A stretch of DNA of 64,000 bases from assembly GCF_054482595.1 (NCBI RefSeq), contig NZ_CM137008.1; one strand, written 5' to 3'. The position numbers and the translations under genes were made by a program. The notes under the pieces are model-generated. The model did not search any database and had not been told where the DNA came from. It was given only the letters and a program-made list of their open reading frames with translations. Shown here in pieces: positions 52,959-58,619 of the stretch (position 1 is the first letter of the stretch; the number at the start of each line of letters is the position of its first letter).

Positions 52959-53861
52959 CTAACCACCCGTTTTCAGGCAATATTCCGTCGTAGCGTGGCG
53001 TTCGATCCAGCGGATCATTTTACCCGCGATGTCGATACCGGTGGTTTTTTCTATTCCTTCCAGTCCCGGCGACGCATTCACCTCCATCACCAATGGCCCG
53101 CGATTAGCACGCAAAATATCCACACCAGCAACGTCCAGCGCCATCGTTCGCGCGGCTTTTATCGCGATTTCACGCTCCTGTGGTGTGATACTGGCGACGC
53201 TTGCCGCGCCGCCACGATGCAAATTGGAACGAAAATCGCCCTCTTTCGCCCGCCGTTCAATCGCAGCGACCACTTCATCGCCAACAACCAGACAGCGGAT
53301 ATCGCACCCTTGCGCCTCTTTGATATATTCCTGCACCAGAATATGCGCGTTCAGACCGCGGAAAGCGTCAATCACGCTTTCCGCCGCCTGACGCGTCTCC
53401 GCCAGCACGACGCCAATTCCCTGCGTGCCTTCAACCAACTTGACCACCAGCGGCGCACCACCGACCATGTCGATTAAATCGCTGGTATCATCCGGCGAAT
53501 GCGCAATGCCCGTGACAGGCAGGTCGATGCCCTGACGCGCCAGCAGTTGCATGGAACGCAATTTGTCACGCGCCCGGGCAATGGCGACCGACTCATTGAG
53601 CGGATAGCTCCCCAGCATCTCGAACTGGCGCAGTGCCGCCGTCCCATAAAAGGTAATGGCGGTGCCAATACGCGGGATCACTGCGTCAAAATGGGGTAAC
53701 TTGCGGCCTTTGTAGTGAATAGAAGACGCCGCAGGATTTATGTTCATGTAGCAAGAAAGCGGATCAAGAATTTCAACCAGGTGACCGCGCTGTATAGCGG
53801 CTTCACGCAGCCGCTTACACGAATAGAGCGTTCCATCCCGGGACAATATGGCAATTTTCAC
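52959..53861 (-). CDS. rimK: Ribosomal protein S6 glutamyl ligase RimK (ATP-grasp)
   Basis: 300-aa [38 protein letters not shown]... Confidence 0.95.
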
Positions 53862-53921
53862 CCTGCACCTCTCTGTCAGACCTGGTCAAAAGCCCGCGTA
53901 TCATACATCGACGTGGCGGTT

Positions 53922-54644
53922 TTAGCGCGTCGCCCAACCCTGTTTGTGCAAATAATCCAGAATAAATGGGCGGCTTTCTTTAATGATTGTTCGGCGGATA
54001 TGATCGCTCCAGGTATCCCGGCGATTATTGCTGCCACGGGTGAGGTAATATTCCGCCAGTTGCTCGTCATACTGCGCCAGTGCGTCTTTATCCAGCGGTT
54101 GATAGCTGTTTTCATGCACCAAAATGGAGGCCGGTAAACGCGGCTTGAGATCCGGATTATCCGCAGGCCAGCCAAGGCACAGCCCAAACAGCGGCAGAAC
54201 ATGCTGCGGTAATTTCAGCAGTTTCGTCACCGCTTCAATATTATTGCGCAGGCCGCCGATATATACGCCGCCCAATCCCAGCGATTCCGCTGCGGTTAAT
54301 GCATTCTGCGCCATCATTGCCGTATCAACGACACCGAGCAACAGCTGTTCCGCCAGGCCGAGCTGAGCATCCGGACAGATCTGTAAATGGCGGTTAAAGT
54401 CGGCACAGAACACCCAGAACTCCGCCGCTTGCGCTACGTGTTTTTGCCCGCCGGTCAGCGTCACCAGTTCTTCACGTAATGCTTTGTCGGTAATGCGAAT
54501 AATGCTACTACACTGCAAAAAACTGGAACTGGACGTCGCACGGGCGCTGTTAATAATCGCCTCACGCTGCGCTTCGGAAATGGGTTCATCAGTGAAATGG
54601 CGAATGGAGCGATGGCCACAAATAAGTTCAATGGTTGGCGTCAT
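53922..54644 (-). CDS. nfsA: Oxygen-insensitive NADPH nitroreductase NfsA
   Basis: 240-aa ORF MTPTIELICGHRSIRHFTDEPISEAQREAIINSARATSSSS... Confidence 0.95.
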   Translation of the reverse strand: MTPTIELICGHRSIRHFTDEPISEAQREAIINSARATSSSSFLQCSSIIRITDKALREELVTLTGGQKHVAQAAEFWVFCADFNRHLQICPDAQLGLAEQLLLGVVDTAMMAQNALTAAESLGLGGVYIGGLRNNIEAVTKLLKLPQHVLPLFGLCLGWPADNPDLKPRLPASILVHENSYQPLDKDALAQYDEQLAEYYLTRGSNNRRDTWSDHIRRTIIKESRPFILDYLHKQGWATR

Positions 54645-54897
54645 TATCTTTTTCTCTTTCTGAACGTGAATATTGCGGTGGACGGTTCATCAGCTGTGGG
54701 GCAAGACGTTTTGCCACCTGAAGAATAACCACCACCGCAGCGGGAAGCATGAGCAAAACACCGAGAAAAATCATCAGAATCTGCACTTCTGGCCGAGAAA
54801 ATGGCTCAGGCAGCGACAGCAGCGCCACCGCCAGCAACATCATTCCGATAAATTCCAGTATCAACACGCTTTTAGGCAATTTACCGATCGCGCGCAT
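54628..54897 (-). CDS. ybjC: Small membrane protein YbjC
   Basis: 89-aa ORF upstream of and overlapping nfsA; true start may lie a few codons upstream at a non-ATG codon. Confidence 0.75.
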   Translation of the reverse strand: MRAIGKLPKSVLILEFIGMMLLAVALLSLPEPFSRPEVQILMIFLGVLLMLPAAVVVILQVAKRLAPQLMNRPPQYSRSEREKDNDANH

Positions 54898-55056
54898 ACG
54901 CTTCCCTCTGCAAAGTGAGCCTTCAGTCTAAAACTTTTCACTGTATTGTGTTTAACAGTTATAGCTTTTAGCAATTAATGCAACAGGTTAAACCTACTTT
55001 CAGCGAATACATTTTAGCGTGATCATTACAGGCATAAATCTATGAGGAGAGAAATA

Positions 55057-55314
55057 ATGCAAACCGTTATTTTTGGTCGTCCGGGTTGCCCTTACTGTGT
55101 GCGTGCAAAAGATCTGGCTGAGAAATTGAGCAATGAACGCGATGATTTTCAGTATCAGTATGTAGATATTCGTGCGGAAGGGATCACTAAAGAAGATCTA
55201 CAACAAAAGGCAGGTAAACCCGTAGAAACCGTGCCGCAGATTTTTGTCGATCAGCAACATATCGGCGGCTATACCGATTTTGCTGCATGGGTGAAAGAAA
55301 ATCTGGACGCCTGA
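55057..55314 (+). CDS. grxA: Glutaredoxin 1
   Basis: MQTVIFGRPGCPYCVRAKDLAEKL... CPYC active site; 85 aa. Confidence 0.96.
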   Translation: MQTVIFGRPGCPYCVRAKDLAEKLSNERDDFQYQYVDIRAEGITKEDLQQKAGKPVETVPQIFVDQQHIGGYTDFAAWVKENLDA

Positions 55315-55343
55315 TCGTCTGACAAGCCCTCGCGTTGAGGGCT

Positions 55344-55721
55344 TTACTGATTTTTTCTGTGCTGTGGTTTAAACAAACTACTGATAAATAAGAAACACAG
55401 TGCCCCCAGCGCACACCAGAACACCGCGCTTAGTAACCATGCCAGCTCTTGCCAGAATGAGCGGGTCGGTGAAAAAAACAGCCGCATAATAAGCATTGAA
55501 CAGGGTGCCGCCAGCATTGCGCCAAATAGAGGTTTCAGGACTTCTCTACGCTGTGAAAAGAAACTGGCAACTGCTCCAGGAAGAATGAAAAACAGCAAGC
55601 CGATTTCAGGATGCCCGGCAGCCCGAAAAGCGCCTTTCATGTGCGTCGCCAGAAAAAGGCACACCACAATGAAGAGGACAAAACAGCAGATTGCCCCCGC
55701 CCAACGTTGTTTATGTTTCAC
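55344..55721 (-). CDS. ybjM: Inner-membrane protein YbjM
   Basis: 125-aa membrane ORF at the conserved position. Confidence 0.9.
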   Translation of the reverse strand: MKHKQRWAGAICCFVLFIVVCLFLATHMKGAFRAAGHPEIGLLFFILPGAVASFFSQRREVLKPLFGAMLAAPCSMLIMRLFFSPTRSFWQELAWLLSAVFWCALGALCFLFISSLFKPQHRKNQ

Positions 55722-55990
55722 TCGTTCCTCCTGACACTGCGTCTATCGAACACATTTTTCGCCAGTGTGGCGTTCAGTAAGATAAAGCCGCTTCGCATTC
55801 CATGCTAATATAGGCCAACGCAATTCATATAGCCGTTGATACCTAATGTGATTACACTAGTAAAATATATTGTTACTTTACTATCGTTTAGGTGCGCTGA
55901 ATGAATCTGCGCCCTGAATTCTGGTAAAAAACATTATCGTAAATTACCATTTCTTTCAACAGCTTACTAGTAAACAAGAAGTTAGCCTCC

Positions 55991-57676
55991 GTGAATATAA
56001 ACGTCGCCGAATTGTTAAATGGGAATTACATTCTGTTATTATTTGTGGTCCTCGCGCTTGGGCTATGTCTCGGAAAGTTACGACTTGGTTCGATCCAACT
56101 GGGTAATTCCATTGGCGTTTTAGTCGTATCGCTGTTATTAGGCCAACAACATTTCAGCATTAACACCGATGCGCTTAATCTTGGCTTTATGCTGTTTATT
56201 TTCTGCGTCGGGGTCGAAGCCGGACCGAACTTTTTTTCCATTTTTTTTCGCGATGGGAAAAATTACCTAATGTTAGCACTGGTGATGGTTGGCAGTGCGC
56301 TGGTGATCGCCTTAGGGTTAGGTAAGCTGTTTGGCTGGGATATTGGCCTGACGGCCGGTATGTTAGCAGGCTCTATGACGTCGACACCGGTTCTGGTCGG
56401 TGCTGGCGATACACTGCGTCATTCCGGCATGGAAAGCAGGCAGCTCTCACTGGCACTGGATAATCTGAGCCTCGGATATGCCTTAACCTATTTAATCGGT
56501 CTGGTGAGTTTGATTGTTGGTGCGCGTTACTTGCCGAAATTGCAGCATCAGGACTTACAGACCAGCGCCCAGCAAATCGCCCGCGAACGTGGCCTGGACA
56601 CTGATGCCAACCGTAAGGTTTATTTACCGGTGATCCGCGCCTATCGCGTCGGCCCGGAGCTGGTGGCCTGGACCGACGGCAAAAATCTGCGTGAACTGGG
56701 TATTTATCGACAAACCGGCTGCTACATTGAACGTATTCGACGTAACGGGATTCTGGCAAATCCAGACGGTGATGCCGTGCTACAAATGGGCGATGAAATA
56801 GCGTTGGTAGGCTATCCCGACGCCCATGCCCGACTCGATCCCAGCTTCCGTAACGGCAAAGAAGTTTTCGATCGTGACCTTCTCGACATGCGTATCGTCA
56901 CTGAAGAAGTGGTCGTTAAAAACCATAACGCCGTTGGCAAACGTCTCGCACAACTGAAGTTGACCGATCACGGTTGCTTCCTTAACCGCGTTATTCGTAG
57001 CCAGATTGAGATGCCGATAGATGACAACGTCGTGCTTAACAAAGGTGACGTTTTACAAGTCAGCGGCGATGCCCGCCGCGTAAAAACCATCGCCGATCGC
57101 ATCGGCTTTATCTCGATTCACAGCCAGGTCACTGACTTGCTGGCATTCTGCGCCTTCTTTGTTATTGGGCTGATGATCGGGATGATCACATTCCAGTTCA
57201 GCACATTCAGTTTCGGCATGGGGAACGCTGCCGGGTTGTTATTCGCCGGAATTATGCTGGGCTTTATGCGTGCTAACCACCCGACCTTCGGTTACATTCC
57301 GCAGGGTGCATTAAGCATGGTGAAAGAGTTCGGCTTAATGGTGTTTATGGCAGGCGTTGGTCTGAGCGCCGGTAGCGGTATTAATAACGGTCTGGGCGCG
57401 ATTGGCGGTCAGATGTTGATTGCCGGATTGATTGTCAGTCTTGTGCCCGTGGTTATCTGTTTCTTGTTCGGTGCTTATGTATTGCGAATGAACCGCGCAC
57501 TGTTGTTCGGCGCAATGATGGGCGCACGCACCTGCGCGCCGGCAATGGAGATCATCAGTGATACAGCTCGCAGTAACATCCCGGCGCTGGGCTATGCGGG
57601 CACCTACGCAATCGCCAACGTCCTGCTGACGCTGGCAGGGACAATCATCGTCATGGTATGGCCAGGATTAGGATAA
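55991..57676 (+). CDS. ybjL: Putative AAE-family transporter YbjL (with TrkA-C domains)
   Basis: 561-aa [41 protein letters not shown]... Confidence 0.93.
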
Positions 57677-57718
57677 AACTGAAGTTGCCCTGAAAATGAA
57701 ATTTTTTTGCACAACCGC

Positions 57719-57752
57719 AGAACTTTTCCGCAGGGCATCAGTCTTAATTAGT
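57719..57752 (+). promoter_or_regulatory. Sigma-E-type promoter of rybB
   Basis: -35-like aGAACTT and -10-like TCTTA with about 16-bp spacing, ending 6-7 nt before the RybB 5' end; RybB is a known sigma-E regulon member. Confidence 0.6.
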
Positions 57753-57831
57753 GCCACTGCTTTTCTTTGATGTCCCCATTTTGTGGAGCCCATCAACCCC
57801 GCCATTTCGGTTCAAGGTTGGTGGGTTTTTT
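57753..57831 (+). ncRNA. rybB: Hfq-dependent small RNA RybB
   Basis: GCCACTGCTTTTCTTTGATGTCCCCATTTTGTGGAGCCCATCAACCCCGCCATTTCGGTTCAAGGTTGGTGGGTTTTTT: recalled RybB sequence with 5' seed GCCACUGC and terminal hairpin plus U-tail; located beside ybjL as in K-12. Confidence 0.9.
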
Positions 57832-58008
57832 GTTATCTAAATCCCCAAAATCTCCATTCTCTCCCCTGTCCAAAGCCTTATCTGACTGTCCTCTCTTCCA
57901 GAAAATCATTCTTTTTCGTACAAAGAACAAATAGTTATTGAGAAGCTTATTTAAAAACCTGAACAAAATCGGTAATATTCCTGGCTTTGCAATACACAGA
58001 TTTTTTAT

Positions 58009-58560
58009 ATGGATATTAACGAGCTAAAAGAGTGCCTTCATCTGGAAGTCATTGGTAAAAGTAGGAAATTCACATGGCGTAAAGTCATTGTAAGGGCGAT
58101 GAAACATCGGCGCGTTCGTTACTTATTCTGGTGGCGTATCGCTAAATACGGCCATGAGAAAGGTGGTTACTGGCGGAAAATTGCTGGCAAAATTGAGCGA
58201 AAAATCCTTGATAGTTATGACGTTAAAATCCCATTAGTCGTTGATATAGGCAAAGGGTTGGATATTTCATACTTAACGGGAGTTGTTATCGGTCATAACG
58301 TAAAAATTGGTGAGAATTGTTCCATCAAACCCGGCGTAACCATCGGCCTACGTGGCCATTTTGACGAAATGGATATACAGATTGGCAACAATGTCACCAT
58401 TGGTTGCAACGCCTCCATTCTGGGCGGCAAAGTCTATATTGGAGATAACGTCACGATAGGTGCACATGCATTGGTTTTGCATGATATCCCAGAAAACTCC
58501 ATTTTTATCAATAAAATAGAATACGAGATTATCCCGAAAAAAGTTATAGCCGAAATGTGA
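58009..58560 (+). CDS. Hexapeptide-repeat (left-handed beta-helix) O-acetyltransferase, WcaB/CysE-like
   Basis: 183-aa ORF with tandem hexapeptide motifs (IGHNVKIGENCSI, VTIGLRG, IQIGNNVTIGCNASILGGKVYIGDNVTIGAHALV) after a basic helical N-terminus; visibly AT-rich; not expected between rybB and rcdA in K-12. Weak ribosome-binding site, so start uncertain. Confidence 0.7.
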   Translation: MDINELKECLHLEVIGKSRKFTWRKVIVRAMKHRRVRYLFWWRIAKYGHEKGGYWRKIAGKIERKILDSYDVKIPLVVDIGKGLDISYLTGVVIGHNVKIGENCSIKPGVTIGLRGHFDEMDIQIGNNVTIGCNASILGGKVYIGDNVTIGAHALVLHDIPENSIFINKIEYEIIPKKVIAEM

Positions 58561-58619
58561 TCGCCAGTGAGATGATTAGCGCTATCGAGGGAGGTGTTGC
58601 GTCTTATCGACCTCTGTAG

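Follow-up and report, generated by a model that had tools for sequence, protein, structure and literature searches.

Introduction

The gene encoding the small RNA (sRNA) RybB is an attachment (att) site of P2-family prophages; listed as hotspot #29, it was occupied in 109 of more than 1,300 Escherichia coli genomes (PMC10121019), and the Klebsiella island Kpn38RybB uses the rybB site as well (PMC4048246). Concerning the genes that prophages carry, NeuO of prophage CUS-3 is a polysialic-acid O-acetyltransferase that modifies the K1 capsule, a lysogenic conversion of a surface glycan; it keeps a catalytic His together with a Trp, and its gene holds a phase-variable heptanucleotide repeat (PMC3046976). 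In this work we analyzed a stretch of 64,000 nucleotides from assembly GCF_054482595.1 (contig NZ_CM137008.1), hereafter the window, in which an open reading frame (ORF) for an acetyltransferase-like protein of 183 residues lies between rybB and rcdA. On balance we lean to the view that this ORF is the surviving outermost cargo gene (a “moron”) of a decayed P2-family rybB prophage, with a product that may be an envelope-glycan acyltransferase.

The enzymes closest in fold to this protein are the serine acetyltransferases (SATs), whose general base is a His polarised by an Asp (His158 and Asp143 in E. coli; PMC8786284), and the catalytic His has been described as conserved in the hexapeptide acyltransferase family (PMC3046976, PMC8786284). 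Genes named “serine acetyltransferase” have also been remarked on as unexplained phage cargo (PMC9603915; PMC6456863), and our literature search found no functional study of the phrog_2154-type family discussed below. What is new here is the loss of the catalytic pair throughout a clade under purifying selection, the placement of the gene next to an att site, and a series of stages of prophage decay.

Organization of the rybB–rcdA region

The spacer between ybjL and rcdA is 174 bp long in K-12 (DH10B), where it contains rybB only and no ORF, and 943 bp long in the window. In the alignment, identity with K-12 runs past the end of ybjL (57676) and through rybB up to 57841 (…GGGTTTTTTGTTATCTAAA), and starts again from the rcdA stop codon, at 58620 on the minus strand. 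The DNA in between has a G+C content of 40.6%, against 51–52% in the ybjL and rcdA flanks. The initial annotation of the window, which was made from the sequence alone, had described an AT-rich ORF at this position, absent from K-12 and lying outside any polysaccharide gene cluster, and the comparison with DH10B agrees with it on all these points: the neighbors are ybjL, rybB, rcdA and ybjJ, and none of them is a polysaccharide gene. Homologs of the 183-residue protein, with E values down to 1e-118, indicate that the gene is real.

The attachment site and the probable prophage origin of the gene

The rybB terminator with its T-run forms the left half of a phage attachment site. P2-like prophages of 34.5 kb occupy the rybB–rcdA interval, each end bearing the core GGGTTTTTTGTTGCCTGAAATTT, and the core (A)TGGGTTTTTTGTTGCCTGAA(A/T)TTT is common, at attL, attR and attP, to the prophages L021 and L141 and to phage ESSI2_ev129 (ev129). 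In the window the foreign DNA begins at 57842, and the junction 57841/57842 falls inside this core, 7 nt into its variable part. The suggestion of the initial annotation that the 3′ end of an sRNA gene served as an insertion hotspot is in agreement with the use of rybB as a P2-family att site (PMC10121019, PMC4048246); the location of the gene is explained by known biology, i.e., by a prophage att site.

Arrangements matching that of the window were found in intact phages. In ev129 the order is integrase, attP with the rybB core, and a homolog of the window gene; in the E. coli lysogen L141, whose attL is identical to the ev129 attP, ybjL and rybB are followed by the homolog as the first prophage gene and then by baseplate and tail-fiber genes. 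The ATG of the homolog lies 325 nt after the ybjL stop codon in L141, and the window gene 332 nt after ybjL. The phage type of ev129 and L141 also occurs at mntR–mntS, where the gene is again the first inside the outer edge of the prophage; at this same site, strain 160-11H1 harbors an internally deleted remnant of about 9 kb, an intermediate stage of decay in which the gene has persisted along with int and the early genes. As a separate observation, a gene with a reverse-transcriptase domain lies in 160-11H1 between mntR and the retained acetyltransferase-like gene (L153:1463-2227).

Because the junction lies within the att core, and because intact and half-decayed arrangements with homologous genes match it, we read the insert as a prophage remnant. 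The window thus shares with the P2-family prophages at rybB (hotspot #29; Kpn38RybB) the att site and a left junction in the same core; it differs from them in that they are complete, with a length of about 30–35 kb, whereas only 778 bp are retained in the window. According to the scenario that we propose, a P2-family (Peduoviridae) phage carrying a Tyr-type allele (see below) right after a rybB-type attP would have integrated at the rybB 3′ end, so that the gene came to lie directly 3′ of the target RNA gene, pointing into the prophage. A single deletion that started just behind the gene and reached the distal att site would then have removed about 30 kb, leaving the gene alone between rybB and rcdA; homologous recombination in its flanks might afterwards have carried the remnant from one E. 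coli lineage to another. We infer both the ancestor carrying this particular allele and the single deletion. The initial annotation had spoken of a lone inserted gene; the gene does stand alone now, but an independent insertion is not what the data suggest, as it belongs to a phage cargo family (phrog_2154) and is likely a prophage remnant. A two-deletion origin from the tail-fiber-assembly position of a Fels-2-like prophage had also been considered, and it was dropped once the att-adjacent arrangement was seen.

At the right-hand end, the first ~35 nt of the tail that separates the ORF from rcdA are homologous to the stretch following the gene in two relatives (L023 and L024), and this tail contains no second att core. 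In the region downstream of the ORF there is no terminator-like site, no significant fold and no tandem repeat, and the scan detected no terminator between the inserted gene and the convergent rcdA. With regard to the 166-bp leader upstream of the ORF, phage records matched the insert in its coding part only and not in this leader; searches for the leader or for the arrangement of L024 gave no matches in viral contigs, and metagenome contigs yielded none at first and then, apart from chance matches, a single E. coli contig, in which the gene is in the lone form.

Occupation of the site is common, the rybB–rcdA junction being split in ~1,195 of 5,422 complete E. coli genomes (~22%); two interrupted junctions were inspected, and both contain P2-like prophages of ~34.5 kb with int adjoining rcdA. 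The empty site (window-equivalent positions 57835-57845) exists as two alleles, ATCTAAAACTT in K-12 and GCCTGAAATTT in O157:H7 and AR_0017. The latter is identical to the phage att core (L001:3159-3169 compared with L003:2659-2669) and looks like the scar of a past integration and excision.

The active site of the protein

Phmmer alignments with three SAT structures place the catalytic His (in “DHATG”) opposite Tyr88 of the window protein (in “ISYLTG”) and the catalytic Asp (in “VDIHP”) opposite Lys73 (in “DVKIP”), the spacing from 73 to 88 being of 15 residues, equal to that between Asp143 and His158. This replacement is not a peculiarity of the window. In a MAFFT alignment of 115 homologs, from which the split into clades was read, Tyr88 is present in all 19 sequences of the window clade (51–100% identity to the window protein), with K, T, V or I at position 73, while His occupies position 88 in 96 of 96 other homologs and D or E position 73 in 88 of these 96; relatives below 55% identity carry D or E at position 73. 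Only positions 73, 78, 88 and 95 separate the Tyr from the His group, and in this alignment no new His or acidic residue is fixed in the Tyr88 clade.

The pairwise dN/dS values within the clade range from 0.02 to 0.2 where dS is measurable, and a P1-borne copy compared with a lambdoid-borne one gives 0.086 at a dS of 0.69. Because Tyr88 and K/T73 occur clade-wide under purifying selection, the sequences indicate that the Tyr88 clade is not decaying and keeps a function without the canonical catalytic pair.

Structure and family of the protein

The presence of hexapeptide repeats folding into a left-handed β-helix after a helical N-terminus, as described in the initial annotation, was confirmed by three approaches. 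Pfam PF00132 (Hexapep) gave two matches (E values of 7.6e-7 and 7.8e-7); the AlphaFold model, a monomer built on 104 homologs, shows four N-terminal helices followed by a β-helix, with a pLDDT of 90.8 (it replaced a first model, on an alignment of 44 sequences, whose β-helix had a pLDDT of ~50); and the top 50 Foldseek matches in the PDB are all β-helix SATs, with TMq values of about 0.6–0.76. The best solved relatives by sequence are SATs too (E value of 9e-13). The product would be a soluble protein with a SAT-type fold, presumably a trimer.

This likeness does not extend to family membership. The initial annotation had called the protein WcaB/CysE-like, and this stands for the fold, since CysE, EpsC and WcaB likewise consist of an N-terminal helical domain and a left-handed β-helix and are the best matches in sequence and structure; as to the family, the protein scores 55–82 bits against curated cut-offs of 150–211 with the models of EpsC (NF041874, 81.5 against 150), cysE (TIGR01172, 71.5 against 210.65) and WcaB (TIGR04016, 55 against 194.65), and 44.6 bits against 397 with a further cysE model (NF008349). 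It also differs from these enzymes in lacking the serine-binding motif and the C-terminal tail, and its gene lies outside any cysteine or exopolysaccharide gene cluster. The DRHP loop and the C-terminal regulatory tail are defining features of SATs; in the window protein, DRHP aligns to EMDI, and the chain stops ~15 residues after the last coil. A relationship to xenobiotic acetyltransferases of the Vat/Cat type, also raised initially, found no support: the Vat and CatB models give 24–29 bits against cut-offs of 300–475 and match only ~45 residues of generic repeats.

The single strong family match is phrog_2154, a family of phage proteins of unknown function (232.5 bits, E value of 5e-69), in which residues 2–177 align with residues 5–181 of 185, that is, 176 of the 183 residues of the window protein are covered. 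The database name “serine acetyltransferase” is probably wrong. The features analyzed are listed in Table 1.

Table 1. Position of the inserted gene, its neighbors and the sequence elements analyzed in the window.
Feature	Position	Strand	Remarks
rybB sRNA gene	57756..57834	+	Rfam RF00110, 104.1 bits, full model length
att-core segment GGGTTTTTTGTT + ATCTAAA	57823..57841	+	Last stretch identical to the empty K-12 site
AT-rich insert	57842..58619	+	778 bp; replaces 9 bp (ACTTATCTA) of K-12; from alignment to K-12, O157 and AR_0017
Candidate sigma-70 promoter TTTAAA-17 nt-TAATAT	57950..57978	+	Found by eye; weak, 8/12 consensus positions
Acetyltransferase-like ORF	58009..58560	+	ATG start, 183 aa; NCBI WP_000353913.1, named “serine acetyltransferase”
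Lys73 codon AAA	58225..58227	+	Position of the SAT catalytic Asp (E. coli Asp143); phmmer alignments
Tyr88 codon TAC	58270..58272	+	Position of the SAT catalytic His (E. coli His158); phmmer alignments
Insert tail	58561..58619	+	59 bp, up to the rcdA stop codon; presumed deletion scar
rcdA	58620..59156	-	Intact, convergent with the inserted gene; PGAP annotation, identical locus in RM9872 and APEC37

Relatives of the gene and their genomic contexts

Members of phrog_2154 are carried by P1-, P2- and lambda-like phages, whereas the window copy has no phage around it. In the relatives sharing 73–79% identity with the window protein, all of the Tyr type, the gene is convergent with a tail-fiber assembly (Tfa) gene and often overlaps its 3′ end; they are hosted by a P1-like phage-plasmid, a P2-like prophage, a 47-kb P2-like plasmid and the end of a lambdoid prophage. 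Among the viral contigs of IMG/VR, a convergent Tfa gene comes next to 36 of the 37 Tyr-type copies covering residue 88. A phrog_2154-type relative is encoded by 114 viral contigs and also by phages ev129 and vB_EcoM-613R2. The His-type relatives, on their side, occur in prophages of cryptic Escherichia clades and as lone chromosomal genes in Pseudocitrobacter and Citrobacter.

Within the Tyr type, the sub-clade with Thr73 is the one found beside Tfa genes. The Lys73 sub-clade (the window and P0001–P0004) includes the window, L023 and L024, in which the gene is att-adjacent or alone; the contigs of P0001 and P0004 are too short to show the gene context. Lone copies 100–160 nt past a tRNA(CAT) gene are those of L012 (Pseudocitrobacter) and of L023, the latter with 77% identity to the window protein. 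In L024, the closest relative of the window gene (79% identity), the gene is flanked by att-type sequence at either end: the contig start, upstream of it, corresponds to the DNA that directly follows the tmRNA-type attP in Cronobacter phage ESSI-2, and a partial RybB copy lies 15 nt 3′ of it (L024:758-801; model positions 32–75, 29 bits, E value of 0.004).

A single cargo gene is thus bordered, in L024, by remnants of two distinct att types. Two E. coli plasmids of 73 kb share with the rybB 3′ region of L024 a stretch of 65 bp at 85% identity (NZ_CP148584.1, 65744-65809; NZ_CP148399.1, 65624-65689), which may be the att sequence of a phage-plasmid. In the metagenome contig L013 (1-4656), a lone gene of the Pseudocitrobacter type adjoins an island that encodes a P4-type integrase, AlpA, Fic and DUF3987; where L013 has the island, L012 has the tRNA(CAT) gene and a UDG-family gene, which indicates that the spot was reused by another element.

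Distribution and presumed spread of the insert

The comparison of synteny across strains revealed the whole insert, at an identity of at least 99.7%, in 70 of 5,426 complete E. coli genomes (1.3%) and not in K-12, as the initial annotation had supposed; nearly all the other complete genomes match the first 158–165 nt only, from the ybjL end through rybB. Carriers include Shiga toxin-producing E. coli (STEC) of serotype O145:H28 and avian, bovine and human isolates. In the assembly collection the exact protein occurs in 10,357 indexed blocks, corresponding to thousands of assemblies, and the gene order ybjL, this gene, rcdA is found in all ten contexts shown; three of these ten look like Shigella, one of them with an IS1 transposase nearby. 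The NCBI entry for WP_000353913.1 is labeled “MULTISPECIES” Enterobacteriaceae. Among the species representatives of GTDB there are only three relatives, from Citrobacter, Pseudocitrobacter and Leclercia, with 51–53% identity.

In three carriers, the 4-kb flanks have diverged from those of the window by 0.5–1.5%, while the insert shows 0–2 differences in 778 positions, both non-coding. Because the insert is near-invariant within more diverged flanks, these sequences suggest that it is younger than the lineages bearing it and has been moved between them by recombination of the flanks.

Alternative explanations

Several findings weigh against the idea that the ORF descends from a decayed rybB prophage and encodes a glycan acyltransferase, and they should be considered together. 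In the window there is neither a phage gene nor a second att core; ev129 and L141 carry His-type homologs that share only ~45–47% identity with the window protein, and no intact rybB prophage with the window allele was found in viral contigs, in the contexts of the assembly collection or in metagenome contigs. The right-hand junction and the last ~25 nt before rcdA are not accounted for by the proposed scenario; two lone relatives do not lie directly beside an RNA gene, that of L016 being 4.4 kb from a tmRNA gene and the lone Citrobacter copy being located between copA and cueR; and the link with tail-fiber genes may be one of physical co-transfer only. As for the function, the absence of the canonical His-Asp pair makes acyl transfer itself uncertain, the consensus promoter scan of the region reported none, the Shine-Dalgarno sequence of the ORF is weak, and the gene neighborhood indicates no acceptor. 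The lack of phage genes and of a second core, together with a 166-bp leader for which E. coli genomes and phage collections provided no other match, would be compatible with an origin in which no prophage took part: the 778-bp segment might be a small cassette that inserted independently, or recombination, homologous or illegitimate, might have brought it in from another bacterium. We consider this very improbable, because the junction falls within the att core, ordinary E. coli sequence flanks the insert right up to its ends, the geometry is within 7 nt of that of the L141 lysogen, and the nearest relatives are att-adjacent. A different objection is that the gene might be a neutral relic, still intact only because it is young and lay at a prophage edge, and either not expressed or devoid of function. 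This would fit the absence of a consensus promoter or terminator in the scan, the rarity of the insert among complete E. coli genomes (the 1.3% given above) and its near-invariance, which makes selection on the lone copy not measurable; it appears unlikely in view of a full-length ORF with the C-terminus typical of its family, of an identical protein in thousands of assemblies and in lineages with ~1% flank difference, of lone copies retained independently at other loci, and of a -10-like motif conserved upstream.

The nature of the product poses a question of its own. The protein might be a pseudoenzyme or a binding protein that has lost acyl-transfer chemistry and kept the scaffold for phage–host conflict, e.g., for substrate sequestering, defense or anti-defense. 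Both residues of the catalytic pair have changed together with no compensating His, Asp or Glu fixed, purifying selection implies that some function is kept, and the gene occupies phage accessory-gene positions, all of which agrees with this idea; nevertheless, the Gly/Ile pattern of the hexapeptides is conserved, as is the C-terminal segment that aligns with the coenzyme A (CoA)-binding part of SATs, PADLOC found no match for the window protein, and some β-helix N-acyltransferases work without a catalytic base, so that we regard the loss of chemistry as a minority hypothesis of rather low probability. Much less can be said for a true serine O-acetyltransferase, a CysE paralog feeding cysteine synthesis: this would account for the best PDB and NCBIfam matches, which are SATs, and for the name assigned by PGAP, but the cysE score lies far below its cut-off, His158 and Asp143 are replaced by Tyr and Lys, and neither DRHP nor the C-terminal tail is present; the probability of this reading is minimal. 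The same negligible credit is due to a Vat- or CatB-type enzyme acetylating xenobiotics or antibiotics, which has hexapeptide repeats in common with the window protein, whereas the scores, over generic repeats, fall far below the cut-offs and the fold search retrieves SATs and neither Vat nor CatB. On the basis of the family membership tests, then, cysteine synthesis and antibiotic acetylation appear effectively excluded.

Expression and possible role of the gene

The candidate -10 element (Table 1) falls within the motif AAAATCGGTAAnATCC, conserved upstream of the ATG in L023, L024 and ev129. In the relatives the gene lies either at the border of the late/tail-fiber region or at the att end, as is typical of lysogenic-conversion genes, and it has a reading direction of its own. 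As to what the remnant of the proposed rybB prophage might do, the role that we prefer, and that we advance as a tentative suggestion, less likely than not, is the acetyl-CoA-dependent acylation of a cytoplasmic envelope-glycan precursor by a non-canonical active site. Possible acceptors would be the lipid- or nucleotide-linked precursors of the lipopolysaccharide (LPS) core, the O antigen, the enterobacterial common antigen (ECA) or colanic acid; these glycans would be the receptors for the fiber types traveling with the gene, and acyl transfer would change the phage receptor in the lysogen, resulting in lysogenic conversion or superinfection exclusion.

By analogy, a lysogenic-conversion or receptor-modifying role is plausible. 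NeuO of prophage CUS-3 is likewise a prophage-borne β-helix acyltransferase encoded outside a polysaccharide cluster (PMC3046976). The window gene differs from it in having neither the catalytic His nor a tandem repeat, and the analogy is functional only. NeuO belongs to a different sub-family, of the MAT/GAT type.

A bolder idea, to which we assign a rather low probability, is that the Tyr88 clade represents an unrecognised type of β-helix protein which has abandoned the His-Asp pair though strongly conserved, is shuttled among P1-, P2- and lambda-like coliphages and has been domesticated by several E. coli lineages (and probably by Shigella), performing either a new chemistry or a non-enzymatic phage exclusion. 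As new chemistry one may think, for instance, of an acyl transfer relying on the Tyr, or on no base at all, and directed to a new acceptor.

These findings have some general implications. A widespread automatic annotation is corrected, in that the name “serine acetyltransferase”, present on more than 1,000 contigs, almost certainly does not denote an enzyme of the cysteine pathway; relatives of the gene occur in common coliphages of the P1-, P2- and lambda-like types and in phage-plasmids. The family emerges as a conserved phage accessory family with an altered active site, traveling with tail-fiber and att modules, and the loci compared here form a decay series at an sRNA att site, from the intact prophage through the half-deleted one to the lone gene. 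The family also offers a tractable candidate for a new function, in lysogenic conversion or in phage exclusion, within STEC O145:H28, avian pathogenic E. coli (APEC) and probably Shigella.

Additional observations on the locus

The stretch 53842-62619 of the window (8.8 kb) is 100% identical to E. coli APEC37 (NZ_CP127303.1), and the spacer is 100% identical also to O145 strain RM9872, which places the origin of the window in one of these two lineages or in a near relative. Around the insert, a direct repeat of 15 nt (14/15 matching) links the left junction (57841-57855) with the 3′ coding end of rcdA (58642-58656), and an inverted repeat of 15 nt (13/15) links the insert tail (58580-58594) with adjacent rcdA sequence (58655-58669). 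The two together tile a contiguous stretch of 28 nt in rcdA, a pattern that no mechanism fits; they were considered as att or target duplications and discarded, since no att model is colinear with them and the inverted repeat is at chance level. Lastly, rybB itself shows in the window one difference from K-12: position 57821, on the 3′ side of the terminator stem, is a G, in contrast to the A of K-12, O157 and others (GGTTGGTGGG compared with GGTTGATGGG); the stem stays paired, as G-U, and the Rfam score is 104 bits.

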